IMG/VR virus record: IMGVR_UViG_3300013947_000058
Span: 1-48,966 of that record
DNA from: a virus
Reading direction: 5' to 3' (one strand)
Length of the DNA: 48,966 bases
Within the stretch, counting starts at the first letter, position 1. Each line of letters begins with the position of its first letter. Below, one piece after another: positions 772-40,098 of the stretch. Position numbers and translations under genes: made by a program. A model generated the notes under the pieces. It did no database searches. It saw nothing but the letters and a program-made list of their open reading frames with translations, and was not told where the DNA came from.

Positions 772-800
772 ATTATACCATGTAGGGTGTAGCTTGTACA
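772..800 (-). promoter_or_regulatory. Promoter P1 (TGTACA -35, 17-nt spacer, TGGTATAAT extended -10)
   Basis: Minus strand reads gggTGTACAagctacaccctacaTGGTATAATaaa. One of a 9-member conserved cassette. The -35 sits in the inverted repeat GGGTGTA/TACACCC. Confidence 0.75.
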
Positions 801-811
801 CCCTTTATTTA

Positions 812-1192
812 TTAAATTTTCCATGCTCGATATACACACTTTTCTGAGCAATCCCATGTATCATAAATTATACCATCAACACATGCAGTTAAATGACCTG
901 CCATTTGAAGAACATAACTTCCTTTTGGATATGCTTGACAAAATCTTTCACCATTCATTCGTTTCTGACCTTTAATCGCTGGAAAACTCATCTTTGTTCC
1001 ACCACATACATTCTCGATATAACTCAACCAGTTATAATCAGAATTAAATGTCTTTGCTCCTGTGATTTTCTTGTGTCGATTAAGCCCAAGCGAAACATCA
1101 TGATAATCCATACCTGTTGCTTTAGCAATTGCTCGCTTAACACAATCATTAACTATTTTTCCTTGTGGATGCAAATTTAAAAACTCATACAT
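812..1192 (-). CDS. Hypothetical protein in a stand-alone cassette behind P2; possible Cys/His/Asp hydrolase-like residues
   Basis: TAGGAGG RBS. 126 aa with NDCVKRA...AGHLTACVDG...YDTWD spacing. No family recognised by eye. Confidence 0.45.
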   Translation of the reverse strand: MYEFLNLHPQGKIVNDCVKRAIAKATGMDYHDVSLGLNRHKKITGAKTFNSDYNWLSYIENVCGGTKMSFPAIKGQKRMNGERFCQAYPKGSYVLQMAGHLTACVDGIIYDTWDCSEKCVYRAWKI

Positions 1193-1253
1193 AATTTATT
1201 TGTTCCTCCTAAACACTTATCATTTTGCAGGCCTTATCTTTAACCTTGATTAT

Positions 1254-1282
1254 ATTATACCACATTGTCTTGAATTTGTACA
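1254..1282 (-). promoter_or_regulatory. Promoter P2 (TGTACA -35, 17 nt, TGGTATAAT)
   Basis: Minus strand reads aaaaacttttcaaaaaagtaTGTACAaattcaagacaatgTGGTATAATataat, with an A-tract UP-like element upstream. Confidence 0.8.
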
Positions 1283-1403
1283 TACTTTTTTGAAAAGTTT
1301 TTAATAAAGTTTCAGGGCAGCCAGAATCAGCTTCTGACCACCCCTACGCTTATCAATCAAAAATTCAATTACATACCAATGATTGCTGCTATAGCATAGC
1401 TTA

Positions 1404-1736
1404 TCATTTTTCAATCAAAAATTTCTCCAGTTCGTCTCTTTGCTCTTTAAGCTTTTCAATCCCATTGCCTGTAATTTCGTGATTTAACAAAACAAGTAAT
1501 GCTTTACAAATCTCTTTATTTGCACATTCATTCTGTCGATTCTGTCTTTCAACTTCTTTAAATCTATTCCAGTCTCTTTCTAAAAATTCTTCGCTTTTAT
1601 CGACTCTTTCTTTTAGCTTTCGAATTGGACTAAATAATTTAATTATTGCTGAAACGCCTCCGGCTATTACTGAAACTCCTCCAAAGATTGAAAGCGCAAC
1701 AGAAATAAAACTTCCGAATTCTTTTATTCCAAACAT
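1404..1736 (-). CDS. Small membrane protein (one N-terminal TM helix plus coiled coil); possible lysis accessory
   Basis: AAGGAG RBS before ATG at 1736. Hydrophobic FGSFISVALSIFGGVSVIAGGVSAII is followed by a charged helical tail. Confidence 0.45.
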   Translation of the reverse strand: MFGIKEFGSFISVALSIFGGVSVIAGGVSAIIKLFSPIRKLKERVDKSEEFLERDWNRFKEVERQNRQNECANKEICKALLVLLNHEITGNGIEKLKEQRDELEKFLIEK

Positions 1737-1748
1737 CAATTTATCTCC

Positions 1749-3326: not shown

Positions 3327-3342
3327 TCTTAACCCTCCTTTA

Positions 3343-4515
3343 TTAAGAAATTACTCTTTTTATCTTTTGAATTAAACTTGGATAACCATATCCGAAAGTA
3401 AATATCTTCTTGTGTTCATCTGAATAATCATCTTCAACCGCCGTAATTCTTGCATCAATAGTTATTCCCAAAGCTGTATCAACAAAAGTCACTATATCTC
3501 CAAGAAAGTAATCTTTATCAAATTCAAACTGTGCTCCATACATTCTCAAGTCACATTCAAAATTTTCTATAACAGCATTTTCTGATAGCTTTTCTTCTCC
3601 TCTATGAATCAGAGTGCCTAAATATTCCAAAGTCGATAGAGTTTTTTCATTACCATCATCATCAGTATATGTACTTTGCAAATCTCTTGCATCAATAAAC
3701 ATTTCATCTCTCAGTAAACCGGTAGGCTTTACTTTTTCGCCTTTTTCATCTGTTATTGAATCTTCAACATTAACATAAGTTCTTAAGCTTCCTTCTCCCT
3801 CACCTGCTACTTTAGCTACATTCTTATAGCCAGTAGAATTCATCTCATAAGAACTTGTTAAAATATCATCAGTATCATCTGAAAACACAATAGCATCGAC
3901 GTCATTCTGATTGATAGTTCTATTTTTGCCTTTGTAAACTCTAAAAATTAAGCTCTCTAAATCTGGAACAAACTGTATCTCAAAACCCATACCTGCCTCT
4001 TGAACCAAGTCACTAATCGCTTCATAAACAGTTCCTCCAGTTTTTTGATATGAGTCTTTCTTACTCTCTCCACTTGAAATATACGGACTTATCGTCATTC
4101 TTGGAATCTTTCTTTTTTCTTCGAAAGGACTTACACAATTTTGATTAACCAGGTTTTCAATAATCTTTGAAACTTCCAAATTGTTTGCTTGATATACATT
4201 CCAAACGATTCTTTTTTCTAAAAGACATTCCAAAGTTCTTCCTTTTATCTCGAAAACCTTTGAACCATCATCTTTTACAGAAGAATTAATAATCTCAATT
4301 ATTGCTGCGGTATTATCTCCTACTCTCCACAATACTCTTCCTTTTTTAAAAAATTCTTTATTCTCATCAGTAATTGGAGCAGTCAATTTAATTTGCGAAT
4401 AACCTGAATAATTCTTAGGCCACATTAGAGATTCAAGTTGATTTATTTCTCCTATATTTTCAAACTTTTCATTCGTCATTTCATATACTGCAATTCTCAA
4501 ATTTTCTATTTGCAT
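3343..4515 (-). CDS. Tail-associated (Tal / gp27-like) baseplate hub protein
   Basis: Position directly after Dit. GGAGG RBS 8 nt before ATG 4515, overlapping the Dit stop. Size and N-terminal pattern match siphovirus minor structural proteins. Confidence 0.5.
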   Translation of the reverse strand: MQIENLRIAVYEMTNEKFENIGEINQLESLMWPKNYSGYSQIKLTAPITDENKEFFKKGRVLWRVGDNTAAIIEIINSSVKDDGSKVFEIKGRTLECLLEKRIVWNVYQANNLEVSKIIENLVNQNCVSPFEEKRKIPRMTISPYISSGESKKDSYQKTGGTVYEAISDLVQEAGMGFEIQFVPDLESLIFRVYKGKNRTINQNDVDAIVFSDDTDDILTSSYEMNSTGYKNVAKVAGEGEGSLRTYVNVEDSITDEKGEKVKPTGLLRDEMFIDARDLQSTYTDDDGNEKTLSTLEYLGTLIHRGEEKLSENAVIENFECDLRMYGAQFEFDKDYFLGDIVTFVDTALGITIDARITAVEDDYSDEHKKIFTFGYGYPSLIQKIKRVIS

Positions 4516-14371: not shown

Positions 14372-14420
14372 TTGATTTCCTCCTTTTTCTGGAAATTGGT
14401 CAACATAACCACTTGTTTAT

Positions 14421-14449
14421 ATTATACCACACAAAATTAGATTTGTAAA
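14421..14449 (-). promoter_or_regulatory. Promoter P3 (TTTACA -35, 17 nt, TGGTATAAT)
   Basis: Minus strand reads cctaTTTACAaatctaattttgtgTGGTATAATataa. Overlaps the 3' end of the ARH gene. Confidence 0.75.
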
Positions 14450-15234
14450 TAGGAAAATACAAAAATTTTGAACTTTTCCAAATAAATTTTAACCTTAGAA
14501 TCCAGTTGGTCAATCCATCTTTGCGGTATAGCATCATAACCAAATCTTGCCCCTGCAATACTACCGGTAATAGCAGCTATCGTGTCTGCATCACCACCAT
14601 CATTTACTGCACCAATTATGGCCTTTTCAAATGATGGTTTACTTGCCCAATATAATGAATTATTGAATGTATCTTTGATATATCCAGAAGGCTCCAGAAT
14701 TGATTTTACTTTATAGGTATATAAATTATTATATAATATATTCTGAATCAATCTGGTGTACTCCAGAATTATCTGGGAACATTCTGAATTATTATGAGTT
14801 AATTTACTTTGTGCCACATTCAAATCAGGTCTATTTATTAAAGCGCATGGCATAGCTCTCATCAAGCTACCATTACCAAGAGCTGTATTATCTCTTTTAA
14901 TAAAATGACCTGTTGACATTGCATAGATTATTCCTTTTTGACATTGACCACCTATATCTTTTGGCCCCATTCGATACCACTCAATAAAATTACCCATGCA
15001 ATGCTTTTCAAATAACTTAATATTATTCATCAAAGCATCCATTACACAGATAGTCATTTGAGTATCATCCGTTACCTTACCAGCTTCAAGATTTAACCAA
15101 CCACCACCAATAATATCGGTTACCTTACCATATTGCTTTTTGATTTGTTTATGATTCATAAACTCAGTAGTTGCACCCATTGCATCACCGATAGCAAATC
15201 CATATATTGCACCTGCAATCTTATTCTTTATCAT
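14437..15234 (-). CDS. ADP-ribosylglycohydrolase (DraG/ARH family)
   Basis: GFAIGDAMGATTEF, VTDDTQMT and NDGGDADTIAAITGSIAGA are hallmark ARH metal-binding motifs. Start uncertain (ATGs between 15234 and 15279). Overlaps the end of the preceding small ORF. Confidence 0.85.
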   Translation of the reverse strand: MIKNKIAGAIYGFAIGDAMGATTEFMNHKQIKKQYGKVTDIIGGGWLNLEAGKVTDDTQMTICVMDALMNNIKLFEKHCMGNFIEWYRMGPKDIGGQCQKGIIYAMSTGHFIKRDNTALGNGSLMRAMPCALINRPDLNVAQSKLTHNNSECSQIILEYTRLIQNILYNNLYTYKVKSILEPSGYIKDTFNNSLYWASKPSFEKAIIGAVNDGGDADTIAAITGSIAGARFGYDAIPQRWIDQLDSKVKIYLEKFKIFVFSYLQI

Positions 15235-15451
15235 ACTCAACATCATACTCAACACACTCACCTCCATCAAGGACTTCATCGGGCTTTACTTCATATTTGA
15301 CACATTTAGATGTGTTGCAAGGCATTCCTTTATCTTTGAAACGATTTCGACAATCCTTGCAAATCAGATTATCATTAGTTACCAAATTAAAGCTTAACTT
15401 ATCTTTTTGAAACTTCTCATCAATAGTACTTAAATTTTTATTTGTTGCCAT
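15221..15451 (-). CDS. Small Cys-rich (zinc-binding type) protein
   Basis: AAAGGAGG RBS before ATG 15451. CKDCRNRF...C...C...C pattern. First gene behind promoter P4. Confidence 0.6.
   Translation of the reverse strand: MATNKNLSTIDEKFQKDKLSFNLVTNDNLICKDCRNRFKDKGMPCNTSKCVKYEVKPDEVLDGGECVEYDVEYDKE
15230..15253. repeat. Perfect 12-bp tandem duplication (atcatactcaac x2)
   Basis: In frame in both overlapping ORFs. Gives VEYDVEYD in the small ORF and LSMMLSM in the ARH 5' extension. Confidence 0.9.
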
Positions 15452-15480
15452 AATTAGCACCTCCTTTTACTTCTATAGAT

Positions 15481-15509
15481 ATTATACCACATTACACTCA
15501 ATTTGTACA
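15481..15509 (-). promoter_or_regulatory. Promoter P4 (TGTACA -35, 17 nt, TGGTATAAT)
   Basis: Minus strand reads attttcaaaaagtaTGTACAaattgagtgtaatgTGGTATAATatctatagaag. A TCTATAGA palindrome sits at the predicted start site. Confidence 0.8.
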
Positions 15510-15523
15510 TACTTTTTGAAAAT

Positions 15524-17509
15524 TTATTTCGAACCTTTTAAATTTTTTAAAGTCATATAAATTCGTCTTACATCGCCACGACTATTAAATTCAACATTGT
15601 CAACCATAAATTTGCCACCACAATTCACAAGAAGCTCTCGCTCACTATAAAATTGAGAAATAGGCGCAACATACATTGCTTGACTTCCTTTAGGAATCTT
15701 AATAATATATTCAATACCAATATCAAAGCCACCACTTGCATCTGGCGACGTAGATAAGAATCCAGAGTCTTGAACAATACCACCAACAAGTCTATCCTTA
15801 TTCTCTTTGGAAATATCAAGACCAAGCTCTTCAAGCATATTGTATCTGGAGCCACGACGAACTATTACATCCTCAGGAAGACTTGCTTTCTTTAATGCAG
15901 CTTGACACTGCTTAATAAGCTGCTTAATTTCATCAGATGCATCAAGAGTACCTTTTGACCTAAGATAATCGTTCATTGCATGATATGTCGAGCTTGTATA
16001 TTTAGTAATTGCATCTCTCTGCGCATGGTCTAATGTTGTTAACCAATCGTGACACCATTCTTCCATTACTTTCATTTTTTGTTTTCTCATCATTTTGCGC
16101 CAAGCAGCAGAGTCAAACTGAACACCAACAGTTTTTGCAGTACTTGCAGTTTTCTTGGTAGTCATTGTAGTTTTTATAACAAAGTTCTTATCAGTCAAAT
16201 ACTGATTATAAAACTTCATTAATTGCTGATATGGATGCGGGTCAGACCAGCTTGTTCCCATACTTTTAAGAATTTCACTTGCTTGTTCATAACTAATCTT
16301 ATGAGACCAATCATCAAAATCATACGGCATTTTATCTTTTGTAAATCCATACGGTTTAAGATATTTTTCTTGAATATCACTAAATGCTTGAATCTTTTTC
16401 TTCCCACCAAGATTAGAACCATCACCATTATAAATATTCTTTTCATACCACTGATTCCACGTAAGACCAGATTCATTTTTAAGAGCTTTAGCTTCAGCTT
16501 TTTGAGCTTGTGTCAAGCTATTAAACCAAGAAGAAGGCGACTTTGACGACATACCATATTTGTTAATAAAATCTTGAACATTTCCTACTTTAGAAACTTG
16601 ATAACCAAAATTACCAGCAAACTCATCAATCTCAGGATATGTTCCATCAGGACTATTAAACCAGTCTGCAAGCTTATCAGCCATTTTATCGTCAATAACC
16701 GGTTCCATTGTACACATTCCATTTGGGTGGTCCATCGGCAAATCATCTTTACTGTAATGAACACCATCACGACTTGCACATAATTCACATGTACGGCTAC
16801 CATTGCTTCTCCAAACATATTCTGTTATAAATGGATTCTTTTGAGTAGTTTCAATGAAACTTTGCTGATAGCCATGCTGAACCAATGTCCTTGCTAATCT
16901 CTGAGCATTATAATCAACTTGCTTTTTATAGATTTTCTTGCCATCAGCCATTCGTAAATTCCAAGGCAATTTAGCATTTGGTCTTACATAAGATTCAAGA
17001 TCTTTAGCAATCTCATAAATGGGTTTATTTTCAGCCAAACCTCTTGCCATAACTTGATAAATATCTTTAAGTGTTTGCTCGTTATCACTCCAAATTCTTG
17101 AGCTTAAGCTCCAACCACTTTCATATATTTGACCAGTTATTAGCTTTTGAACAGTTTCATGTGGCACATAACTAAATGCGGCATTCAAACCACCAGAAGA
17201 AAAACCAAAACTCTCTAGCCACTTAGCATTATCTGACACAACTGCATCAGCTACAGTATAAATATTCGACTTTATCTTTTTATGAATTTCATTAGAAACC
17301 TCTTGGCTTGTTTGTCTTAATTGCTTCTGCAATTCTTTGTAATATCGCTCAGACACTGGAGCACTTGCAGTGGATTTGTGAGAGTAGTATTTAGCTCTCT
17401 CACCAATCTCATCTGCCCAATCTTCATAGAGCTTTGCAATCTCTTTTTGCTGAGATGCCATAATGGCAAATTTAGCATCTTCAGCATTTTTAAAAATTAA
17501 ACCAGCCAT
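15524..17509 (-). CDS. Minor capsid protein (SPP1 gp7 / Mu F family) fused to a C-terminal ADP-ribosyltransferase toxin domain
   Basis: MuF signature WRSNGSRTCELCASRDGVHYSKDDLPMDHPNGMCTMEPV. C-terminal R-S-E ART triad: YTSSTYHAMNDYLR, VIVRRGS, GFLSTSP, SERELLV. Confidence 0.85.
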   Translation of the reverse strand: MAGLIFKNAEDAKFAIMASQQKEIAKLYEDWADEIGERAKYYSHKSTASAPVSERYYKELQKQLRQTSQEVSNEIHKKIKSNIYTVADAVVSDNAKWLESFGFSSGGLNAAFSYVPHETVQKLITGQIYESGWSLSSRIWSDNEQTLKDIYQVMARGLAENKPIYEIAKDLESYVRPNAKLPWNLRMADGKKIYKKQVDYNAQRLARTLVQHGYQQSFIETTQKNPFITEYVWRSNGSRTCELCASRDGVHYSKDDLPMDHPNGMCTMEPVIDDKMADKLADWFNSPDGTYPEIDEFAGNFGYQVSKVGNVQDFINKYGMSSKSPSSWFNSLTQAQKAEAKALKNESGLTWNQWYEKNIYNGDGSNLGGKKKIQAFSDIQEKYLKPYGFTKDKMPYDFDDWSHKISYEQASEILKSMGTSWSDPHPYQQLMKFYNQYLTDKNFVIKTTMTTKKTASTAKTVGVQFDSAAWRKMMRKQKMKVMEEWCHDWLTTLDHAQRDAITKYTSSTYHAMNDYLRSKGTLDASDEIKQLIKQCQAALKKASLPEDVIVRRGSRYNMLEELGLDISKENKDRLVGGIVQDSGFLSTSPDASGGFDIGIEYIIKIPKGSQAMYVAPISQFYSERELLVNCGGKFMVDNVEFNSRGDVRRIYMTLKNLKGSK

Positions 17510-19120: not shown

Positions 19121-20269
19121 TTATTTTATTCCACCATTATAGGAAACGAAACCAACTTTACAGTTTGAGCTTCCGTTAATCTTATAAAGTACAAGATACA
19201 TTCCGTCAACAATTCCTAAGCATACACAAGATTCATTCTTATCAAGGTTTCCGATTAAGTTTTTCTTAGCTGTATCAGAATACACCTTTTCAATAGTCGA
19301 ACCATTCTTATAGTGTTTTCCGCCGGACGGAATTGATTTTACTCCGCCTGCATATTTAACAAATCCAACCTTGTGCTTGCTTGAACCATTAATTTTGTAA
19401 ACAACAACATATCCTTTGGACTTTTTGCCATAGCATTTTGCTCCTTCTCTTGGAGATATACTTCCTATATTACCTGTGAGATTACATGCTTCAAATACCT
19501 TTTCAATAGTTGAACCATTTTTCCAAGCAACCGACTTTACAAAATGTGAACTATGAGAAGTGTTTGAAGATATACCTGACTGATTCTTTGGTCTTAAGAA
19601 ATTGATATTGCTCCAATCAGTATGTTTGATATTCTTAACAATTCTGTTACCGTTATAATTCTGCTCAATAGTATAAAAATAATCTTTAGTTGCCGATATA
19701 ATTATACCGATATGACCATAAGTACCACTCGTTCTTACAAATACATCACCCTTTTTTGGAATAAACTCAGGAGTGTTTGGAATAGCCGTAAACAAACTTT
19801 TGATATAACTTGAATTTCTATTAAGCCAATAATCTTTAGCATTACCTGCGGCTTTAGGAGGCACCCCTAAAACATCTCTTATATAATTCTTTACAAAGCT
19901 TACGCATTCGCCTACATAAGTACCGTCAAAACCATAAGAATGATTGAGCTTATACTTTTTACAGAACTCATCAAACGTTATTGTACTTGAGCCTCCCTTT
20001 TCTTCATCTGAATCAGAATGAGGCTGATTATAAGACATAGCACGTTGACTATCTGAAATTCCTTTTGTAGTTGGATCAGTAATAATCCCTATTGTAGCAG
20101 GAACCATCAGAATAAGAGTGATAACATCGAGAATCTCTTTCTCTGATACTGAAGTTTCTACTCCACACAATCTCAAAATCGAAAAGATTGCTATAACAAT
20201 AGCAGAAATTACTGATAACCACCAAGAACCATTGTTGATTCTTACTTTCCAATTTATATTATTATTCAT
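19121..20269 (-). CDS. Holin (phi LC3 family) fused to a CHAP peptidoglycan hydrolase with two SH3b-like repeats
   Basis: N-terminus INWKVRINNGSWWLSVISAIVIAIF...LILMVPATIGIITDPTTKGISDSQRAMSY is holin-like. CHAP Cys/His: GECVSFVKNY, YGHIGII. Two repeats KNGSTIEKV...YKINGSS.KVGFV.Y.GG. Confidence 0.75.
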   Translation of the reverse strand: MNNNINWKVRINNGSWWLSVISAIVIAIFSILRLCGVETSVSEKEILDVITLILMVPATIGIITDPTTKGISDSQRAMSYNQPHSDSDEEKGGSSTITFDEFCKKYKLNHSYGFDGTYVGECVSFVKNYIRDVLGVPPKAAGNAKDYWLNRNSSYIKSLFTAIPNTPEFIPKKGDVFVRTSGTYGHIGIIISATKDYFYTIEQNYNGNRIVKNIKHTDWSNINFLRPKNQSGISSNTSHSSHFVKSVAWKNGSTIEKVFEACNLTGNIGSISPREGAKCYGKKSKGYVVVYKINGSSKHKVGFVKYAGGVKSIPSGGKHYKNGSTIEKVYSDTAKKNLIGNLDKNESCVCLGIVDGMYLVLYKINGSSNCKVGFVSYNGGIK

Positions 20270-20291
20270 AACATTTGCCTCCTTTAATTAT

Positions 20292-22292
20292 TTAACTGGA
20301 CGTAATCCATAATTTATAAAAAACATCTACAGCTGTACCTTTAGTAAAATTACCTGCTGAAGTTCTTAAAGTTACTGATGACTGACTTTTCATTAATATA
20401 GGGAATGTTCCTTTAGTCCTATCGATATTTAAAGTATAATCATTACTTGAGATAGCATCAAAGAAGTCAACTATTGCATATTGCTGATTACATCTTACAA
20501 CGTGAAGAAAGATATTTTTAGTATCAGTTTCCAGATTACCTAAAGTAACAGTATTACCGAAAAGATCCAATGTAAGTACACCCTGCATACCCGTGTTAAT
20601 CCCATCTTTTCTAAATAACCATATATACATTTCTTGAAAATCTCGTGCATTAGAAATCGTATAATGTTCCGTATCTTCTTTAATATTTTCTTGAGTACTT
20701 AACCAATTTAATTTTGAAAATCTATCATTATAATTGCCTATTTCTTGCATCATAGGAAGCAAAATATCAGACATTAAAGACATTGTAGGAATCTCTTGAT
20801 CGGCATCTTCAACAGTTGCTTTTGAAATATCAAGACCTTCTGTATTGACTGATAATTCTTGATTTTCAAGTTTTAGTCCTTTGCCTATGCCTGAAGTATT
20901 TAAAGTGGTTATACCAGTTTCTTCATTAAGTTCTTTAGTAGTTACTAATCTTCCTGCTTCTTGTTGGCTTACAGCATCATTAAAAACCATATCTACTATA
21001 TTCAACATATCTTGTATATCTTGAATTTTTGAATATTTGATTTGACTACCATCTTTTTTACTTCTTACACAAAAAAGTATATCTCCATCGGGAGTCGTAT
21101 GTATTAAAGTTGAATAATTTTTACTACTGTCAGTTCTATCATTAATTTTCGTTGTTAATAAGCAAAGATTATTTTTAGAAACAACTACGTGCTGAGTTTG
21201 ATTGTTAATAGTCCAATCAAAAGTCCACTCTATCGCTGCATAATATAATCCATCTTTAGTTGGTACATATCCGCTCTCGTTAACAACCGTAATAGGACTT
21301 TTAGGCAATTCAAAATTACCATTACCCAAAATAGACTCATTATTTATAGTCTTGATATTTTGCCCACTTACGAGTGTATCTTGCTTATCGTCTAACTCTT
21401 TTTGCGTTACAAAATTTGCATGATTCCACGAATTCACATCTGAAGAATCTGGGATGTATCCTCCATTGGCGTATTCTCCTTCTCCACCAAATTTGCCAAT
21501 TAAACACATTTGACCATCAGCGGATTTAAAAATAAAAGTACCTTTTGATAAACTAAATAAACTAGCAACTGGAGATTTGCCATTTACAAGAACATTAACA
21601 CTTTCAACATTAACTACATAAGCACCCTCTTTTAGAGTAGTAACCTCCAAAGTATCACTTAAAATCGGAGTGAAGGGAATACTCTGTAATTCATTAAAAT
21701 CAGTAGTTCCGGGTTCGCCTTTTAAACCTTGTGGTCCTTGTGGACCAATCGGGCCTTGTATTCCTTGTGGACCTTGCTCTCCATCTCTTCCGTTATAAAC
21801 TCCATCTTCTGCATTCTTTTGAATTTGGTCTGCTATTGTTTTCGCTTGTGCTGAAGTTTCTTGAGCCTCTTTTACTTTATCAGCACTTGCTTCCGTTTCC
21901 GCTGCATATCTCTTAATCTCACTAATCAACTGATTATAAAGATTCGGAGTAGGTGGAATAGGTTCTTGCTCTGTCGAACTTAAACCTGCTGGATATACTT
22001 CTATCTCATAACCATTAACTGTACCAAAAACTGCTGTATCTGCTTTTGCACCAAAACAAGAAATCATTAACCAACCTGCACTTATATCAGCCGGGACATT
22101 AAGTGTTCTTGCTTCGCCTATGTACTTATTAATCGTCTTACCTTTTTGAATGAACTGAACTGTCATAAGCAATCCATCCCAATCACTTGAGCATTGCAAT
22201 TCAATAGGAACGAATTCTGTACTACCTGCAACCAACCTAATAGGTGGACTGTCAAAAGAACTTATTTTCTGACCTTCAACCAATAATTTCAT
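20292..22292 (-). CDS. Collagen-repeat-containing fibre / structural protein
   Basis: [31 protein letters not shown] run at about aa 165-195. 666 aa and beta-rich. Confidence 0.5.
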
Positions 22293-24957: not shown

Positions 24958-25016
24958 TTTCGTTCCTCCGAACATTTAACTTATTTGATTTAGGCTCATT
25001 CCTTAACCTTGATTAT

Positions 25017-25045
25017 ATTATACCACAAATATATAGGTTTGTACA
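25017..25045 (-). promoter_or_regulatory. Promoter P5 (TGTACA -35, 17 nt, TGGTATAAT)
   Basis: Minus strand reads caaaaatttttaagaaaaggGTGTACAaacctatatatttgTGGTATAATataat. The only cassette copy upstream of the packaging/structural block. Confidence 0.8.
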
Positions 25046-25131
25046 CCCTTTTCTTAAAAATTTTTGAAGATTTTTGTATTTTATTTTAGCAATATCAAGC
25101 TGATTTATTTTCAGGCTATTTCAGAAAGTCA

Positions 25132-28277: not shown

Positions 28278-28324
28278 TAAAACAAATATAAGCTGGATAT
28301 ATGTAAGTAACATATATCCAGCTT
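28278..28324 (-). terminator. Rho-independent terminator
   Basis: Perfect 15-bp stem AAGCTGGATATATGT/ACATATATCCAGCTT with a 5-nt loop, followed on the minus strand by atatttgtttt. Confidence 0.8.
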
Positions 28325-28364
28325 ACAGTTTCTTATTGAGCCGGATTCATAAGTTAACTAAGCA

Positions 28365-29120
28365 TTAGATATCCCAGTCATCATCGTCATCATCAGACTC
28401 AGCTTCTGTCTTCTTTGCAGCCTTAGCTTTACCAGTCTTAGCAGTTGCTTTCTTTGCAGTCTTCTTAGGAGCTTCAACATCTTCATCATCGCCCCAATCA
28501 TCATCGTCAGCTTCAGCTTCTGTAGTCTTGACTTTTGCAGCATCATTCTTAATGAGTAAATCAGCATAGAACTTAGCAGGCTTCTTAGGAGCTGCTTTAA
28601 TCTTACGAGCTTTGCACTCTTTGAAGAGTTCCATAGCGGTCTTACCTTCATAAGGATTAGCCTCAGTAGCATCTTCCTCTTCCTTGGCTTCTGCATCTTC
28701 GCCAAATGCTTTCTTGCAAGCTTCAATTAAGTCAGCCTTTTTAGTAGACTTAGCAAGCTTTCTCTTACCAGCCTTACCAAGAATTTCCCAAAGCTGCTTA
28801 GCGCTCATAGATTCATTCCACTGAGCAGTAGCTTCATCTTCAGCTGCGTCCTCTGTAGCAGCTTCAGCTTCGTCTGCATCCTCATCATCAGATGCAGTTT
28901 CAGTAATGCTTGCTTTAATTGCTGTGTTTACTTTGTTTGCCGTAAGATAATCAGGCATATAGCTCATAAGGTCAACAAAATCCTTACCAGCTTTTGCTAC
29001 AACAACTGCAACCTTAGTCGCAAGAACAGGATAACGTCTACCGATATCTGTAATTGCCTCTAAGTCAGTACCATCTGCGATAATCTTAACTGCTTCGTTA
29101 AAAGTGTAATTTTTTGCCAT
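28365..29120 (-). CDS. Acidic/lysine-rich protein with two SAP/Rho_N-like modules
   Basis: MSAKQLWEILGKAGKRKLAKSTKKADLIEACKKAF and TAMELFKECKARKIKAAPKKPAKFYADLL. C-terminus DDDDDDWDI. Driven by P6. Confidence 0.55.
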   Translation of the reverse strand: MAKNYTFNEAVKIIADGTDLEAITDIGRRYPVLATKVAVVVAKAGKDFVDLMSYMPDYLTANKVNTAIKASITETASDDEDADEAEAATEDAAEDEATAQWNESMSAKQLWEILGKAGKRKLAKSTKKADLIEACKKAFGEDAEAKEEEDATEANPYEGKTAMELFKECKARKIKAAPKKPAKFYADLLIKNDAAKVKTTEAEADDDDWGDDEDVEAPKKTAKKATAKTGKAKAAKKTEAESDDDDDDWDI

Positions 29121-29265
29121 TTTAATTTTCTCCTTTTCGTATTTTGATTTCGTATTTTGATTTTTGATTGATTTTCCTAAACTTAGGACTTTTATATGAT
29201 TGAGGTGTTCCTCATAATCATTTAATATTCAGTTTGGAAGATATTTCCTCCTTAACTGTAATTAT

Positions 29266-29294
29266 ATTATACCACGTTATTTGCCATTTGTACA
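29266..29294 (-). promoter_or_regulatory. Promoter P6 (TGTACA -35, 17 nt, TGGTATAAT)
   Basis: Minus strand reads tttttgaaaaacttttaaaaaaacctaTGTACAaatggcaaataacgTGGTATAATataat. Confidence 0.8.
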
Positions 29295-29348
29295 TAGGTT
29301 TTTTTAAAAGTTTTTCAAAAATTTTGAACTTTTATTTCATTTATTCAT

Positions 29349-31168: not shown

Positions 31169-31434
31169 TTATTATATTCACCTCCGGAACGTAATCCTGT
31201 TTTACTTTTGCGTTCACGAATAATTATCATTTCTTTTTGAGATTTTACTCTGCCATTCTTTATGCATTCTGCACTTAAGCACTTATTAAATAGCTTTTCA
31301 TTGCAAGCATCACATATTGTAAAAATACTGCCACCGATGCATAAATCAAACATATTTAAAACTTGGTCTTGACGCTCACCACACTCACAGCATATAGCAT
31401 CTGATTTTGTATTGTTTCGCATTTTAATAGCCAT
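31165..31434 (-). CDS. Zinc-ribbon protein
   Basis: CCECGER...CDACNEKL motifs. 89 aa. Confidence 0.5.
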   Translation of the reverse strand: MAIKMRNNTKSDAICCECGERQDQVLNMFDLCIGGSIFTICDACNEKLFNKCLSAECIKNGRVKSQKEMIIIRERKSKTGLRSGGEYNK

Positions 31435-32319: not shown

Positions 32320-32336
32320 GGCCGCATTAAGCGGCC
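32320..32336 (-). terminator. GC hairpin overlapping the stop codon of the AAA+ gene (possible terminator)
   Basis: GGCCGC attaa GCGGCC. The downstream U-tract is weak (tgatggtttatt). Confidence 0.4.
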
Positions 32337-33418
32337 ATCTGAATTTTTCTTAATGCGATATGATACTTGGTACTTCCATTAGGATTAAATGTATTGATTG
32401 TATCTTTGTCTAAACCTTTAACAATGCTAATCTTCATTGCCATCTCTAAGTTCATACCTTTTGCTTCAAGTTTGGTAATCATTGTTATGCATCTATAGGA
32501 GAATGTAGCTCTAATTCCTTTTGATTCAGCTTCTTTTCTCATTTGATGAATAAATTCAACCAATTCTGAATTATTATGAGTAAGTGCCATTTCAATCTTC
32601 AAACAATAATCAAACTCAATGATTGCAAATCTATCAAGTGTTGCTTGGTCCAAAACCATGCGTCCTGTATACATATCATCTGCACCACTTCCTACTGTAT
32701 TACCAGCAGCTACAAAATGCACATGGTCAAAATCAACTCGACCATTAGGAAATTCAAAGTAACCATTAGCAATTGCTGCATTAAGAAGAACCAGAACTTC
32801 AGGAATTGAAGCATCCATTTCATCAAGAAAGAAAATGCATTCATTTTCATCTGTACAAGCTTTGTAGAATTCTGTTTCGTGGAAGTCACCACCTGCATCA
32901 ATGAATCCTGTAAGTTTATATTCTTGTTGGATTGAATTACTGAAGTAAAAATTCCACCCAAGCTCTTTTGCAATCTGCTCAACTGTGTGATTTTTACCAG
33001 AACCAGCAGGACCTGCAAGATAAACTGGAATGTTACATTCCAAACAACACTTAATTTCATCGTATCTGTCATGATGAACTTCATCATTTTCTTCAACTCG
33101 AGGAATAATAGTTGGCATTTTAATTCCTTTTCCTTCAAGTTTATTTTTAATTTTTGATGACGTGGTACCTACTTGCTTAGCTGTTGACATTTTCTTAATG
33201 CCCTTGGTTTCGTATTCACGTTCAACCTTTTCTACCTGATAGTTTGCATCGAAGTAAATTCTGCAACCATCAATCACTGTTGTGTTGTTGTATGCTTTAC
33301 GCACATAAGTGAACTCTTTACTTGAACCTTCAAACTTAAGTGTAACAACTACACAGCCATGTTTCATTGCTTTTTCAATTTTGATAACTTCGAAATTTAC
33401 GTTTGTCATGTTTGTCAT
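32327..33418 (-). CDS. AAA+ ATPase (MoxR / AAA_5-like)
   Basis: Walker A VYLAGPAGSGKNHT. Walker B IFFLDEMDASIPEVLVLLNAAI. Driven by P7. Confidence 0.7.
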   Translation of the reverse strand: MTNMTNVNFEVIKIEKAMKHGCVVVTLKFEGSSKEFTYVRKAYNNTTVIDGCRIYFDANYQVEKVEREYETKGIKKMSTAKQVGTTSSKIKNKLEGKGIKMPTIIPRVEENDEVHHDRYDEIKCCLECNIPVYLAGPAGSGKNHTVEQIAKELGWNFYFSNSIQQEYKLTGFIDAGGDFHETEFYKACTDENECIFFLDEMDASIPEVLVLLNAAIANGYFEFPNGRVDFDHVHFVAAGNTVGSGADDMYTGRMVLDQATLDRFAIIEFDYCLKIEMALTHNNSELVEFIHQMRKEAESKGIRATFSYRCITMITKLEAKGMNLEMAMKISIVKGLDKDTINTFNPNGSTKYHIALRKIQMAA

Positions 33419-33486
33419 AATGTTTTTCTCCTTTTCAACTGAAAACTTTGTGATTTGTTCGTAGGCTTTATGTACCTTACGATATT

Positions 33487-33515
33487 ATAATACCATATAA
33501 GCTGGAGTTTGTACA
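33487..33515 (-). promoter_or_regulatory. Promoter P7 (TGTACA -35, 17 nt, TGGTATTAT)
   Basis: Minus strand reads tttttgaaaaattttcgtaaaaaggGTGTACAaactccagcttataTGGTATTATaatatc. Confidence 0.75.
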
Positions 33516-33529
33516 CCCTTTTTACGAAA

Positions 33530-33565
33530 ATTTTTCAAAAACTTCAAGGGAGGTTTTAGCCTCCC
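33530..33565 (-). terminator. Rho-independent terminator
   Basis: Minus strand reads GGGAGGctaaaaCCTCCCttgaagtttttg, directly after the stop at 33573. Confidence 0.6.
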
Positions 33566-33572
33566 AATCAGT

Positions 33573-34385
33573 TTAGATATTTTCAAGGTCATCAATTGTT
33601 TTAATTGTGTTTACGTCCTTCTTAATGAAGTTAGGTAGTAAATATTCACCTTTGAATATCTCACGCATTTCATTTGAAGTAGCTGGACTACCATAATTAC
33701 TTACAAAACTCTTTGTGACGTTTGGATAAACCTCAATGAATCTAAAGAACAAACGACGAAGCATTGATGGATGAACCAATGGGAATGCAAGTTTTGAAAC
33801 ATTCATCTTTTCATTTGCCGATTTGATTCTCACTTTAATAACGAATTGTTTTGAAGGATAACCAGCAGTTGTACCAAGCACAATGTTCAAGTTGCATCTG
33901 TAACATTGAGCCTCAAGCTTCTTGACAATCTGCATTGCTTTTATACTTTCTTCAATTATTTGCTCTGCACTTACACCACCATTGTAGTCGATTGATTTGT
34001 TTAATGTAATGACTTTCTGCTTAACAGGTGTCATTTTCTTTGTGACCATGTTATTTGGTACACCTTGCAAATACAATGGAACAATTGCTTGATAACCTGC
34101 AATGCTCAATGTGTTTTTAGGTTTCATTGTTGGCTCTGTTTTGCTCTCAATTACCTTGAGTTTTTGAACCAATTTAGTTGCCATATCTGACCAACCGTTC
34201 TTAAACAACTCAACTGCTTCACTGAAGTCTCTTGTTTTTGTGAAATAGTAGTCACCATCAACTGATGAATGTTTAGCCCAACAGAAAGCTTCATTGAATG
34301 GTGTATGAATTAGATACTCATAAAACTCATGTAAGCTATCATACTCAATAACTTCTGTTTTGTTTGTGATTTGATTTGATTTCAT
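33573..34385 (-). CDS. Hypothetical protein (partner gene of the AAA+ ATPase)
   Basis: AGAGGAGG RBS. 270 aa, no motif recognised. Driven by P8. Confidence 0.5.
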   Translation of the reverse strand: MKSNQITNKTEVIEYDSLHEFYEYLIHTPFNEAFCWAKHSSVDGDYYFTKTRDFSEAVELFKNGWSDMATKLVQKLKVIESKTEPTMKPKNTLSIAGYQAIVPLYLQGVPNNMVTKKMTPVKQKVITLNKSIDYNGGVSAEQIIEESIKAMQIVKKLEAQCYRCNLNIVLGTTAGYPSKQFVIKVRIKSANEKMNVSKLAFPLVHPSMLRRLFFRFIEVYPNVTKSFVSNYGSPATSNEMREIFKGEYLLPNFIKKDVNTIKTIDDLENI

Positions 34386-34436
34386 GTTGTTTTCCTCCTC
34401 TAAGGATTTATGTGTTATACCTTAACCACTGTAATT

Positions 34437-34465
34437 ATTATATCACAAGGATTTTGATTTGTACA
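34437..34465 (-). promoter_or_regulatory. Promoter P8 (TGTACA -35, 17 nt, TGATATAAT)
   Basis: Minus strand reads catagggtaTGTACAaatcaaaatccttgTGATATAATaatt. Confidence 0.75.
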
Positions 34466-34500
34466 TACCCTATGTAAAATTATTTTAGTTAGTTAAAAAT

Positions 34501-35477: not shown

Positions 35478-35518
35478 ATCAATTCCTCCTTTTATTTTGA
35501 TATTTATTCCAAGGGGCT

Positions 35519-35611: not shown

Positions 35612-35644
35612 AAATATCTTAATTATTATAAATAATTTAATATA

Positions 35645-36175
35645 TTAGTCTTTTATTTTAATTCTTTCCAAAATCAAATCTTTTGGCAAAATGTTATAAC
35701 ATAGATATGCCGACTGAAATACACCGCCGCCTTGCTTTCTTATGCCATCTTCATAAAAGAAATATGGGACTCTTGGATATAGATAGAGCAAACCAATGTT
35801 CTTATCTTCAAAATATGAGAATCTTTTGTTATTATCAAACAGACCTAATGTATTAATCAGCATAGCAAATGGAATATCTAATTCAAATAATTTTTCGAAG
35901 ACCTCTGTCTTTTTTGAATATGGAGGATTGCTAATAATATAGTCCACCTTTGTTCTTATTTTTCTTAATTTAAAAAAATCTTTACCTTCAGAAATATGGC
36001 TATGCAAAACATTAAAACCCTGCTCTCTAAGAACTTTTACAAAATTAGAATCCTCTGTATCAAATGGACACAATACTGTGCTACCTGGCTTTAAAAATTT
36101 AATGATAGGATATATAGCACATTTTGGCGTATAGTATTCGTCTTGTTTATTTAGCTTTAAAGTATGACTTGACAT
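35645..36175 (-). CDS. N6-adenine DNA methyltransferase
   Basis: DEYYTP near the N-terminus and catalytic DYIISNPPYSKK. Confidence 0.75.
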   Translation of the reverse strand: MSSHTLKLNKQDEYYTPKCAIYPIIKFLKPGSTVLCPFDTEDSNFVKVLREQGFNVLHSHISEGKDFFKLRKIRTKVDYIISNPPYSKKTEVFEKLFELDIPFAMLINTLGLFDNNKRFSYFEDKNIGLLYLYPRVPYFFYEDGIRKQGGGVFQSAYLCYNILPKDLILERIKIKD

Positions 36176-37042: not shown

Positions 37043-37044
37043 TG

Positions 37045-37239: not shown

Positions 37240-38036
37240 CTCGCCTCCTTTGGTCTGTTTAAAATATGATGAACGATATACATATAAACAATACCTTTTT
37301 CTTCTATATCACTGAGATACCAATCAGCAAATTCTTTAGGATTCTCTTTAAAGTTTTTCGTTATTGTATCTTCAATTCTTATCATTGGAAACTGTGACAT
37401 ATCATGCTTGCCAAATAATCTAAAAAGCTCATTATCTGAATGTGTATATGCATAATTCTCATTGATTATTGCTTCACACAATCTCTTTAAAAACCTTTTT
37501 ACTTTGTTATCCGGTTTAAGCTTTTCTTTATTCAGCTTTTCAAGTAGTATCTCTGGAGTTGGCCACTCATACCAAGTTATTCTTCCGGCTTCTCTCATAC
37601 TCTGATTATGTTCTATGCCGTATGTTTGAGCAATTCTGTTCATTAGCTCTCCTGCTTTTCTGTAACCAACATATACAATAAGCTTTGCAAGTACATAAGC
37701 TTCAAACTCATCTTGATGCATTATATGAATTCCACTTCCACGATTCGCTGGGATTTTAAACTTTCCACCAAGATGCTTAACTCTCATATTCACATCTAAG
37801 CAATCTGTTTTTAAATCAAAATACTCAAACCAAACATTATAAAAATCATCTGCTGAACAACTCATTATAAGTCTGTATTTATTAAAGTTAAACCTATCTC
37901 GCTGTTGCTCAATCTTAAGTGCTTTATCTCTAAATGGAATCACATATTTTCCTTCTTTTAGCTTTATCCATCTTGGAACTTGTCCCGAATTATAAATTTG
38001 GTCAAGATTGAAATAAGGCACATCAATTACAAACAT
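37236..38036 (-). CDS. OGG1/AlkA-like DNA glycosylase fold protein (catalytic motif not recognised)
   Basis: N-terminus FNLDQIYNSGQVPRW, YFDLKTDC, GIHIMHQDEFEAYVLAKLI and WYEWPTPEILLEKL parallel Ogg-family landmarks. No clear HhH-GPD Lys/Asp seen. Confidence 0.35.
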   Translation of the reverse strand: MFVIDVPYFNLDQIYNSGQVPRWIKLKEGKYVIPFRDKALKIEQQRDRFNFNKYRLIMSCSADDFYNVWFEYFDLKTDCLDVNMRVKHLGGKFKIPANRGSGIHIMHQDEFEAYVLAKLIVYVGYRKAGELMNRIAQTYGIEHNQSMREAGRITWYEWPTPEILLEKLNKEKLKPDNKVKRFLKRLCEAIINENYAYTHSDNELFRLFGKHDMSQFPMIRIEDTITKNFKENPKEFADWYLSDIEEKGIVYMYIVHHILNRPKEAR

Positions 38037-38488
38037 ACATCACCACTCCTATTTACAACTCGTATAATTCCTGCATTTTTAAGCATTCTTGCACATATAT
38101 TGCAAGGAACAGGATTCTTATCTTCATGAAAGTCAACAACTTTCTCTTCCCACATTGCAGATTTTTCTTCATTTAGACCATATTCTTCACAAGCCAAATA
38201 TACCGTCGCACCAATCAATCTCTCACGACCTGTAGCAATCAAAGCATTTTGCTCTGCATGAACACTATCACAATTTTCGTAGCATGAATATCTTTCAGCA
38301 TTTGCTCTTTTGCATGTGCCTCTATCACAACAATTTTCTTCGCCTCTCGGACTGCCATTGTAACCGGTAGCAATAATAATATCATCTTTAACAATAACAC
38401 AACCATAATGACGTTTGAGGCATGTACTTCTTTTCGAAACTGCAAGAGCAATACCAAGATAATATTCATCTTTTGTTATTCTTCTCAT
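38027..38488 (-). CDS. dCMP deaminase
   Basis: VHAEQNALI and PCNICARML zinc-binding motifs. AGAGGA RBS before ATG 38488. Confidence 0.85.
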   Translation of the reverse strand: MRRITKDEYYLGIALAVSKRSTCLKRHYGCVIVKDDIIIATGYNGSPRGEENCCDRGTCKRANAERYSCYENCDSVHAEQNALIATGRERLIGATVYLACEEYGLNEEKSAMWEEKVVDFHEDKNPVPCNICARMLKNAGIIRVVNRSGDVCL

Positions 38489-38499
38489 AGTTTTCCTCT

Positions 38500-38709
38500 T
38501 CACTTTCTTTTGCTCTTTGTTATCATTGATTCTTCCCATTTTTCAATATTGCAGTCTTGATAGCCTAATCCTGTTAGTGCAAGTGCAAGCTGCTCAGGCG
38601 CAATTATAATATCAATATCTTTTTTAAAATTATTATCTGTAACAGATATAATAATTTGATTTGTATTATTAATATTACGAGAAATAGTTATTTTTGCATT
38701 AGTTTTCAT
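38500..38709 (-). CDS. Hypothetical protein
   Basis: ATG 38709 (MKTNAKITISR...). 69 aa. Confidence 0.45.
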   Translation of the reverse strand: MKTNAKITISRNINNTNQIIISVTDNNFKKDIDIIIAPEQLALALTGLGYQDCNIEKWEESMITKSKRK

Positions 38710-38747
38710 TTGCCTGCCGCCTTTCAATATTTTACACTTTAAATAAA

Positions 38748-39680
38748 TTAAATAAACTCTTTTGGAATACGCTTACCAAATTGCTGAGCTCTTTTTACCA
38801 TGATTTCTTTTCTGATAGATTGAACATCATCAAAGCTTACAAATCCTCTATCAAAAAATAGTGGTATTTCACATTCACCCATTGGATTACTTACTTTTGA
38901 TTTAACCACTTTACATTTCATAATCAGCCCAATTTTCTCTGTTGTAGCTGAATTACATGGATTTTTATTCGGAATCTCAATCCAGGCTTTTCTTGCAACC
39001 TGAATACGCAAAGAGCATGCGTGCTTAAGCTTACGTCCTCCAGGTGTATCTGTCTTTTCACCAAATAGCATTGCATTCATCTTATCTCTTACTTGATTAA
39101 TAAAGATTAGCGTTGTTCCTGTCACCTCAATGATTTCCTCAATTGTAGGCAAATACTTATTCATTAGTCTCGCTGTGCCACCAATTCGCTGTTCTTCAAT
39201 TGAATCCTTTTCAGCAGACTTAAGAACCTTTTCAGCATCTTCCTTTGGTACCATACTTGGCACACTATCAATACCAATAAGAGGGATTCCTGCTTTTGCA
39301 AATTGAATTGTTTTGTTAAATGCATCTTCACCATACTTAGCACGATAAATCAACATTTGCTTTGGTCTATTTCCAAAGACCTTTGCACGTTCTGCATCAA
39401 ATGTTCCCTCAATAGGAATATCCAAACACATAGGATGAAGTCCACATAAATGATATAACAAAGTTGTTTTGCCTGAACCTTCAGGACCAAAAATTTCAAC
39501 CACTCGTCCTTCAGGCATTCCACCACCAATGATTGCATCAAGGTCCTCAATGCCAGTTGACCAACGATTGATTTTAAGGTTAGCGTGTTTTGAGCCAATT
39601 GAATATACAGCACCTTCGCCTTCCTTTTTATTGATATCATTACAAAGTTTTATAATAGCTTCCTTATTTGTTTTTGCCAT
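38748..39680 (-). CDS. recA: RecA-like recombinase
   Basis: STGIEDLDAIIGGGMPEGRVVEIFGPEGSGKTTLLYHL is the RecA-family Walker A context. 310 aa. Confidence 0.8.
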   Translation of the reverse strand: MAKTNKEAIIKLCNDINKKEGEGAVYSIGSKHANLKINRWSTGIEDLDAIIGGGMPEGRVVEIFGPEGSGKTTLLYHLCGLHPMCLDIPIEGTFDAERAKVFGNRPKQMLIYRAKYGEDAFNKTIQFAKAGIPLIGIDSVPSMVPKEDAEKVLKSAEKDSIEEQRIGGTARLMNKYLPTIEEIIEVTGTTLIFINQVRDKMNAMLFGEKTDTPGGRKLKHACSLRIQVARKAWIEIPNKNPCNSATTEKIGLIMKCKVVKSKVSNPMGECEIPLFFDRGFVSFDDVQSIRKEIMVKRAQQFGKRIPKEFI

Positions 39681-39756
39681 ATTGGCTACCTCCTTGAATT
39701 ACTTGGATAGGCGGCCAACCTGTGACTGCCCTCCATTTTCATTCTCATCTACAAAA

Positions 39757-40035
39757 TTACTCTTTATCAAGTTCAATGATTTTAACACCACTAATATCAT
39801 CATGAGTATCAGCAAATGCTGCAACCATTGCCAACTTATCTTCAAGCTCAATCATATCATCTTCAGCTTGAAGGAAGTTCTTAAGCTCTTCCTCTGAAGC
39901 ATCTTTAGCAAGAGTATGAATCGAGTCAACAAACTCATTAACAGCTTCATCTGCCATCTTAGCTGCTTGGTCCATCTTGATTTTCATAATCTTCTTGTTT
40001 TCTTTAAATTTGTTTAATATATTCGTTTCCTCCAT
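39757..40035 (-). CDS. Acidic hypothetical protein
   Basis: First ORF behind P9. 92 aa, strongly acidic. Start uncertain because GGAGG lies just inside the ORF. Confidence 0.45.
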   Translation of the reverse strand: MEETNILNKFKENKKIMKIKMDQAAKMADEAVNEFVDSIHTLAKDASEEELKNFLQAEDDMIELEDKLAMVAAFADTHDDISGVKIIELDKE

Positions 40036-40069
40036 TTTAATTTAATAGGCATGTACAACCTTTAATTAT

Positions 40070-40098
40070 ATTATACCACAATAACCAAGGGTTGTACA
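40070..40098 (-). promoter_or_regulatory. Promoter P9 (TGTACA -35, 17 nt, TGGTATAAT) with a second TGTACA downstream
   Basis: Minus strand reads tttagggTGTACAacccttggttattgTGGTATAATataattaaaggtTGTACAtgcc. Confidence 0.8.

Follow-up and report, generated by a model that had tools for sequence, protein, structure and literature searches.

The virus sequence in IMG/VR record IMGVR_UViG_3300013947_000058, analysed here over its full length of 48,966 bp (the window), carries ten copies of a repeated cassette, designated P1 to P10. These cassettes are probably (at roughly 75%) strong promoters for host RNA polymerase carrying the primary sigma factor, sigma-A, and appear to be built like the early promoters of phage T4, with UP, −35, TGn and −10 elements. 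Recognition by the host enzyme and the positions of the start sites are deduced from the sequence. Strong promoters of the T4-early type are already known; in the −35 hexamer of the present ones, T at position −33 is fixed genome by genome.

Nine of the copies had been proposed beforehand as minus-strand promoter cassettes with a palindromic TGTACA at −35, and all nine are present (Table 1). TGTACA followed by TATAAT at a spacing of 15–19 nt is found eight times, each time on the minus strand, against 0.09 occurrences expected from shuffles. Seven of these matches are among the nine copies and the eighth lies at 45075–45103; P3, with TTTACA, and P7, with a −10 of TATTAT, make up the nine. The spacer is exactly 17 nt in 9/9, as had been stated. 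A 39-nt position weight matrix (PWM) was built from the nine copies and both strands were rescanned, with 50 shuffled genomes as background. The nine copies score 37–49 bits (25–44 bits in leave-one-out scoring), the best score in the shuffled genomes is 14.3 bits, and the plus strand has no copy and never exceeds 2 bits. The rescan adds a tenth copy, P10, and a borderline eleventh site. P10 has no A/T tract and is situated inside a methyltransferase-like open reading frame (ORF), and it is kept in three relatives (G001, G002 and G003). At the place orthologous to the eleventh site, G003 shows a full core, TTTACA-N14-TGTTATAAT. The hexamer TGTACA as such is not enriched in the genome (15 copies vs 15.5 expected), but −35 boxes account for 8 of these copies. 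Matches to a generic sigma-70-like promoter occur about as often as expected by chance everywhere in the genome, thus the cassettes are the only recognisable promoter class.

The mutual identity of the copies is 60–80% over approximately 76 nt. When the cassettes are aligned in register, conservation extends from about −60 to +10, and the conserved unit is really ~70–76 nt rather than the ~55 bp first given. The consensus of 57 cassettes from seven genomes (this phage and the relatives that share its −35 type) begins with A-tracts at −55 to −51 and −44 to −40, the consensus state in 54–57 cassettes, with T-runs between them and a phasing of ~10–11 bp. Downstream of the A-tracts follow (G/A)T(G/T)TACA(A), a variable spacer, T at −17, TGn, TATAAT and a ATAATCAAGG-like start region. 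Among the ten copies of the window, TGTACA is found in eight (P3 and P10 have TTTACA) and TG(G/A)TATAAT in nine (P7 has TGGTATTAT). Both flank subtypes that had been distinguished are confirmed, with GGGTGTACAA in P1, P5, P7 and P9 and (G/C)TATGTACAAAT in P2, P4, P6 and P8. The −35 box of P1 does lie in an inverted repeat, with 8-nt arms (AGGGTGTA/TACACCCT). In P9, 9-nt arms (TGTACAACC/GGTTGTACA) span the promoter, and the second arm holds the second TGTACA noted earlier, 41 bp downstream. A likeness of the A/T tract and of TGTACAA to CodY or Spo0A boxes was considered by eye; the phased registers of the A-tracts fit UP elements better.

All ten cassettes share the strand of the genes, the opposite strand has no copy, and each cassette is upstream of a start codon. 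The predicted leaders extend 17–145 nt to starts preceded by a ribosome-binding site, with the exception of P10, which is 209 nt upstream of the start of the DnaE-like polymerase gene. A terminator-like hairpin is found directly upstream of P2 and of P7, inverted repeats are found at P1 and P9, and the other six copies have no adjacent stem-loop. The first 99 bp of the record are identical to the last 99 bp, which is a terminal overlap, and the genome is a complete, circular or permuted assembly of ~48,867 bp. Owing to this circularity, P1 and P2 follow the last genes of the tail operon and immediately precede the wrap-around replication module, which continues across the junction; they do not come after everything else. 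P1, together with P10, heads a unit of ~9.6 kb.

This arrangement supports the original prediction that extended −10 promoters of the sigma-A type define the transcription units, and no other promoter class stands out. The same prediction had the copies define the units of the early region, with P1 to P4 as insertions into the late region or behind it, and this is partly right. P4 is part of an accessory module missing from G001, and P2 drives a variable gene, but P1 stands first in the replication operon that runs over the circular junction. P5 is placed ahead of the terminase genes and drives the late operon from terminase to MuF, and the operon that P3 drives runs from scaffold to tail and includes the capsid gene; the cassette is therefore not early-specific. 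A perfect hairpin with an 18-bp stem and T-runs on both sides (28287–28327, both strands) follows the first gene of the P6 unit and resembles a bidirectional terminator.

The cassette architecture, always on the gene strand, is family-wide and was found in 72 relatives, including the cultured Agathobaculum phage AB434P2, a TTTACA-type phage of A. butyriciproducens DA434. Twelve genomes were compared for the −35 hexamer. In seven of these (G000, which is the genome described here, G001 to G005 and AB434P2; 33–47% G+C) there are 30 TGTACA, 22 TTTACA, 5 TTTACT and no TTGACA. In the other five (G008, G009, G011, G012 and the Clostridium phage CS266P1) there are 24 TTGACA and no T(G/T)TACA. Thus the −35 type is never mixed within a genome. 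Because the same cassette carries TTGACA in related genomes, TGTACA can be said to occupy the canonical −35 slot. The variable position of the hexamer is position 2 (G in 33 and T in 24 of the 57 cassettes), and position 3, at −33, is T in 57/57. Position 2 also flips between orthologues of P2, P3 and P7 among genomes with 96% identical polymerases, e.g. P3 has TTTACA in G000 and G002 and TGTACA in G001 and G003, and P2 and P7 have TTTACA in G003.

Early promoters of T4 are 'über' UP/−35/TGn/−10 promoters used by the unmodified RNA polymerase of the host, and some of them are enhanced by Alt, an ADP-ribosyltransferase injected as a head protein (Hinton, 2010; PMC2988021). The T4 −35 is GTTTAC at −36 to −31, with an A-rich segment at −40 to −44. 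T is found at −33 in T4 and G is preferred there in RB49, RB43 and Aeh1, and a contact of this position with ADP-ribosylated alpha has been suggested (Nolan et al., 2006; PMC1524935). The cassettes agree with the design of the T4 early promoters (Pe) at each position compared. A-rich tracts are present at ~−42 and ~−52, in the same registers; G is found at −36 in half of the copies; the −35 is T-rich with T at −33; a TGn extension precedes a perfect TATAAT; and there are many near-identical copies per genome. The T-versus-G split at −33 between related phages is likewise shared, and so is a virion-borne ADP-ribosyltransferase in the same genome, predicted here from its domain. There are also differences. 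Position −34 is G in 8 of the 10 copies, giving TGTACA rather than TTTACA, and the cassettes drive late (terminase and head) genes as well. The phage, a siphovirus, has no relationship to T4, its tentatively assigned host is a Gram-positive gut Clostridia bacterium, and no middle system of the MotA/AsiA type or late sigma factor was found in it.

Cassettes of the same design were also found outside the phage family. A scan of IMG/VR for TGTACAA-N13-TGGTATAAT gave, among the matches listed, fourteen marine contigs (L133, L135, L141, L142, L150, L152, L161, L175, L176, L181, L193, L197, L198 and L202) with 3–5 TGTACA/TTTACA-N17-TGGTATAAT cassettes each. In these contigs the cassettes are on one strand with an A-rich tract at −44 to −39, there are no TTGACA-type sites, and there is no protein similarity to the phage family described here. 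Genes for a family-B polymerase, a gp46-like nuclease, a DnaB-like helicase and a ligase are present on them, and the polymerases most resemble those of Phage C48C1 and of T4-like Synechococcus and Prochlorococcus phages, thus the contigs represent marine T4-type myoviruses. The TGTACA form of the T4-early promoter appears to be common in uncultured phages of this kind.

A mechanism can be proposed from these features. The alpha C-terminal domains would contact the phased A-tracts at −55 to −51 and −44 to −40, either as UP elements or as curved DNA. The (G/A)T(G/T)TACA segment at −36 to −30 would act as a non-canonical −35, in which T replaces G at −33 and position −34 is G or T. The fixed 17-nt spacer, the TGn extension and the perfect TATAAT would together account for most of the binding energy, and transcription would start ~7 nt past the −10, within the conserved ATAATCAAGG stretch. 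Ten such promoters on the gene strand, some with an upstream terminator hairpin, would split the circular 48.9-kb genome into approximately ten units, among them units with replication genes and units with virion genes. That TGTACA looks palindromic would be incidental, the hexamer being one of two interchangeable forms (TGTACA and TTTACA) of a −35 typical of the lineage.

Several points weigh against the sigma-A promoter interpretation. The candidate host lineage is tentative and comes from the endolysin, whose CHAP domain is 68–70% identical to genes on two contigs of a metagenome-assembled genome (MAG) of gut Ruminococcaceae. A gene of a Eubacterium MAG shares 46% identity with the endolysin, and the DNA of the endolysin region is 67–73% identical to several loci in both MAGs. 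A search for links to the candidate hosts through prophages or clustered regularly interspaced short palindromic repeats (CRISPR) gave the endolysin similarity only and no convincing spacer. In these MAGs, extended −10 boxes pair with 24 TTGACA, 10 TTTACA and 1 TGTACA. The sigma-A of the candidate host has a canonical region 4.2 helix, identical to that of E. coli and B. subtilis, and so does not account for the complete lack of G at −33 among the 57 cassettes, which come from seven diverged genomes. The strict split by genome hints at some trans-acting determinant. In addition, one promoter type drives both replication and late genes, which does not account for temporal control.

The hexamer can nevertheless be found in bacteria. 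In 201 bacterial genomes of the candidate host order, TGTACA-N14-TGnTATAAT gave 53 matches, with at most 3 per genome, and the reversed control gave 1; in the 49 kb of the phage there are 7. Thus TGTACA seems usable by bacterial RNA polymerase, but rarely. A host-wide preference for TGTACA was ruled out by the 24/10/1 tally in the MAGs and by the low number of sites per genome in the 201 genomes. A phage-encoded specificity factor likewise found no support. Pfam and PHROGs searches of the ~70 ORFs gave no helix-turn-helix (HTH) or sigma domain, and neither the ADP-ribosyltransferase (ART) domain nor the nucleotide-modification module follows the −35 type. By tblastn presence or absence of all 69 G000 proteins in the 12 genomes, no gene was tied to the T(G/T)TACA type. 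Inheritance within the lineage with purifying selection is a possible cause of the choice at −33, as is an unrecognised factor.

Two further observations concern the candidate hosts. Positions 31311–31346 match contig C66 of the Eubacterium MAG (G007) over 36 nt with 89% identity (E = 4.5e-4), which could be a degenerate CRISPR spacer or chance. The region at 19121–22292 (minus strand), between TerL and portal, contains a holin-CHAP-SH3b fusion lysin and a 666-aa fibre-like gene, with counterparts in 0/12 compared relatives. The DNA identity of the lysin region to several loci in two gut Clostridia MAGs suggests that it was captured recently from the host lineage.

An additional role of the cassettes, compatible with promoter function, may tentatively be considered. 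They could be mobile terminator-promoter modules, similar to the PeSL cassettes of T4-type phages, and provide short patches of homology for the gain, loss and shuffling of genes. PeSLs are strong sigma-70-like promoters with stem-loops that mediate modular shuffling in RB49 and phi1 (Arbiol et al., 2010; PMC2839356). The present cassettes are similar in that repeated strong sigma-70-like promoters flank dispensable and variable genes, with a terminator hairpin at P2 and P7 and an inverted repeat at P1 and P9. P2 and P7 are terminator-plus-promoter units, the copies share 60–80% identity over their length, and the genes adjoining P1, P2, P4 and P9 vary among relatives of 92–96% identity. The P2-driven gene is found only in G002 among these, and P1 only in G000 and G002. 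At 14437–17509 (minus strand) the MuF ART domain, P4, a 76-aa ORF and an ADP-ribosylglycohydrolase gene behave as one accessory module. This module is wholly missing from the 96%-related G001, in which the MuF protein stops before the ART domain. However, most cassettes, unlike PeSLs, have no adjacent stem-loop, and the largest variable genes (19121–22292) do not adjoin a cassette. The likeness drawn here is one of sequence.

A rather unlikely alternative is that an RNA polymerase in modified or remodelled form recognises T at −33. The polymerase would be altered by a virion-delivered ADP-ribosyltransferase or by a small protein that binds sigma region 4, with T(G/T)TACA marking the preferred promoters of the phage after host takeover. 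This would account for a −35 type that is uniform per genome and for the lack of G at −33 (0/57) in spite of canonical promoters and a canonical sigma-A in the candidate host. The phage MuF head protein (ORF 15524–17509) is fused to a C-terminal ART domain that matches Alt-like families, and an ADP-ribosylglycohydrolase is promoted separately. In T4, −33 is believed to be a preferred contact of ADP-ribosylated alpha (PMC1524935). But the ART domain does not follow the promoter type. Two T-type genomes (G002 and G003) and two G-type genomes (G008 and G009) have it, and G001, G004, G005 and AB434P2, all of T type, lack it; nor does any other G000 gene follow the promoter type. No single promoter position explains the effect of Alt in T4 (PMC2988021). 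In addition, the first promoters after infection must function with unmodified polymerase unless the modifier is injected. That the T/G choice of each genome reflects such a trans-acting polymerase modifier, either an injected ADP-ribosyltransferase or a small sigma region 4 binder, seems improbable. If it were so, the cassettes would be the Gram-positive counterpart of the Alt-enhanced T4 early promoters, and TGTACA/TTTACA would be a phage-specific 'self' mark for remodelled RNA polymerase.

The original prediction suggested that the −35 palindrome is the site of a dimeric regulator. TGTACA would then be an operator of a phage or host protein that overlies the −35 and switches all cassettes jointly. 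The comparison with related phages does not support this, and we regard it as very unlikely. A perfect 6-bp palindrome is found in 8 of the 10 copies, longer inverted repeats are present at P1 and P9, and TGTACA is the core of the YefM-YoeB operator, where the hexamer likewise overlaps a promoter (Kedzierska et al., 2007; PMC1802561). But the YefM-YoeB and Axe-Txe operators require two TGTACA boxes 12 bp apart, one of them with extended symmetry, and a cognate antitoxin gene accompanies them (PMC1802561). Neither boxes paired at 12 bp nor a shared longer palindrome nor an antitoxin gene was found here. The dyad symmetry ends at 6 bp, the next symmetric pair matching in only 8/57 cassettes. The G that makes the palindrome is replaced by T in 24/57 cassettes and at orthologous promoters, one genome has 4 TGTACA and 7 TTTACA, and TTGACA is found at the same place in other relatives. 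The repeats of P1 and P9 are particular to those copies, and that of P9 is absent from G002. Pfam and PHROGs searches of the ~70 ORFs, many of them small and without an assignable family, gave no HTH, ribbon-helix-helix, Phd or sigma domain, and the presence of no gene follows the motif.

Two related candidates were rejected. A shared embedded operator, TACAAY-N-RTTGTA, is absent from the cassettes. A restriction or methylation site at TGTACA does not fit a total count equal to expectation, and the methyltransferase at 35645–36175 is not common to the TGTACA-type relatives. Thus a short palindrome inside a −35 box should be treated with caution and not read as an operator.

That the cassettes are some other cis element, e.g. 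sites of replication, packaging or recombination, would fit their repeated, AT-rich and intergenic nature but is given almost no weight, since the conserved positions are exactly those that RNA polymerase reads (−35, TGn, −10 and UP registers), the spacers are free to vary, and every copy is co-oriented with the genes and upstream of a start codon.

The leader of P1 contains a predicted type I hammerhead ribozyme. It consists of stem I GCUGCC/GGUGGC, the CUGAUGA core, a stem II of 5 bp, GAAA, and a stem III with an A-U closing pair. The U at the cleavage site comes next, and cleavage is predicted to separate GUU from GGUGGC. The minimum free energy fold is exactly the three-way junction (−19.9 kcal/mol, z = −3.3). 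Copies are found in G001, G002, L013, L014, L031, L034 and the cultured AB434P2, with the core kept and both strands of stems I and III changed. Compensatory double changes are found in 9 of 17 pairs (7 sequences), and the catalytic core is invariant in 8 sequences. As in known type I hammerheads, the CUGAnGA and GAAA cores are complete, G-C closes stem II, A-U closes stem III, the cleavage residue is not G, and the three stems show compensatory changes. Unlike those, the sequence scores below the Rfam gathering thresholds (Hammerhead_3, 19.1 vs 48.5 bits; RAGATH-1-hammerhead, 18.2 vs 56.3 bits), and self-cleavage is a prediction.

The distance between ribozyme and P1 is not fixed. In G002 the ribozyme is ~360 nt downstream of P1, and G001 has the ribozyme without P1. 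The mature P1 transcript is predicted to begin with a 5′-OH at the cleavage site, and for this reason standard rapid amplification of cDNA 5′ ends (5′-RACE) at P1 could mislead. The terminator hairpin upstream of P2 (1302–1355) ends in GGCUGCCCUGAAAC, which is like the hammerhead stem I strand and core minus the stem II part. This resemblance could be a coincidence or a remnant.

Judged from its genes, the phage is a siphovirus akin to cultured gut Clostridia phages. The minus strand holds all genes, the G+C content is 35%, and the layout of the ORFs assigned by PHROGs and Pfam is that of a siphovirus. The replication and nucleotide-metabolism half encodes primase, DnaE-like polymerase, RecA/UvsX-like recombinase, Cas4-type exonuclease, RuvC and RNase H, together with ThyX-like protein, HD dNTPase, MazG, deoxyribosyltransferase and dCMP deaminase. 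The virion half encodes TerS, TerL, portal, the fusion of MuF-type head protein and ADP-ribosyltransferase, scaffold, major capsid, tail tube, tape measure, Dit and Tal. The nearest cultured phages by polymerase are the Agathobaculum phages AB434P2/P3 (59%) and the Clostridium phages CS266P1-4 (52%), all of them gut Clostridia phages, and the metagenomic relatives (n = 72) are 51–96% identical. A megablast search with 12 kb of the genome against cultured phages gave no matches, and Rfam and tRNA scans of the whole window found nothing.

Two features of the genome may relate to its DNA. The nucleotide-metabolism block (42797–46751 and 38027–38539, minus strand) contains genes for ThyX-like protein, HD dNTP triphosphohydrolase, nucleoside deoxyribosyltransferase, MazG, a P-loop kinase-like ORF, an S-adenosylmethionine methyltransferase-like ORF and dCMP deaminase, which suggests that thymidine (or another base) of the virion DNA is replaced or modified. 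The block is limited to G000–G003 and G010; the annotation of AB434P2 has a dUMP hydroxymethyltransferase instead. The palindromes TGATCA and CATATG have no copies in the genome, TCTAGA has 2 and AGATCT 3, and hexamers of similar composition have 5–30 each. This looks like avoidance of restriction sites.

Table 1. Cassettes, hairpins and ribozymes (scores in bits are from the 39-nt PWM; the row of ribozyme copies gives contig and position)
Feature	Position	Core	Strand	Remarks
P1 cassette	765–825	772–800	−	TGTACA, 17 nt, TGGTATAAT; 43.3 bits; drives hammerhead leader and ORF 143–652, then replication module across circular junction
P2 cassette	1247–1307	1254–1282	−	48.9 bits; drives variable gene 812–1192
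P3 cassette	14414–14474	14421–14449	−	TTTACA; 40.7 bits; drives two zinc-ribbon paralogues, then scaffold, capsid and tail genes
P4 cassette	15474–15534	15481–15509	−	40.8 bits; drives 76-aa ORF and ADP-ribosylglycohydrolase gene 14437–15279
P5 cassette	25010–25070	25017–25045	−	46.1 bits; drives terminase, portal, MuF-ART late operon
P6 cassette	29259–29319	29266–29294	−	42.1 bits; drives 28365–29120, then, past strong hairpin 28287–28327, RNase H region
P7 cassette	33480–33540	33487–33515	−	−10 TATTAT; 43.9 bits; drives AAA-type gene 32327–33418 and downstream genes
P8 cassette	34430–34490	34437–34465	−	TGATATAAT; 37.3 bits; drives DUF7192 gene 33573–34385
P9 cassette	40052–40123	40070–40098	−	9-nt inverted arms bracket promoter; downstream TGTACA 40052–40057; 45.0 bits; drives recombinase and nucleotide-metabolism block
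P10, new tenth copy	43032–43070 (PWM match)	43038–43066	−	TTTACA-N14-TGGTATAAT (17 nt); 24.3 bits
Possible weak eleventh site	45075–45103		−	TGTACA, 17 nt, TATAAT, without TGn; 15.1 bits, borderline; intragenic
Terminator-like hairpin	1302–1355		−	−22.5 kcal/mol; ends 19 nt upstream of P2 −35; closes tail operon
Terminator-like hairpin	33539–33574		−	GGGAGG...CCUCCC, −14.3 kcal/mol; directly upstream of P7
Type I hammerhead ribozyme (predicted)	692–748		−	P1 leader, 20 nt downstream of P1 −10, upstream of Rho_N-domain gene 143–652
Hammerhead copies elsewhere	L085:2300–2356; L089:7065–7121(−); L014:2227–2283; L034:3549–3605; L031:3163–3217; L083:42214–42270; L013:285–362			

The T4-early design with T at −33 thus appears to recur in unrelated Gram-positive gut phages and in marine T4-type phages, which would make the old question of the −33 T testable in new systems. 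The ten predicted promoters, the few terminators and the one leader ribozyme form a transcription map for an uncultured gut Clostridia siphovirus, and this map extends to a family with cultured Agathobaculum and Clostridium phages. For synthetic biology, the cassettes are candidates for very strong, compact promoters in gut Firmicutes.

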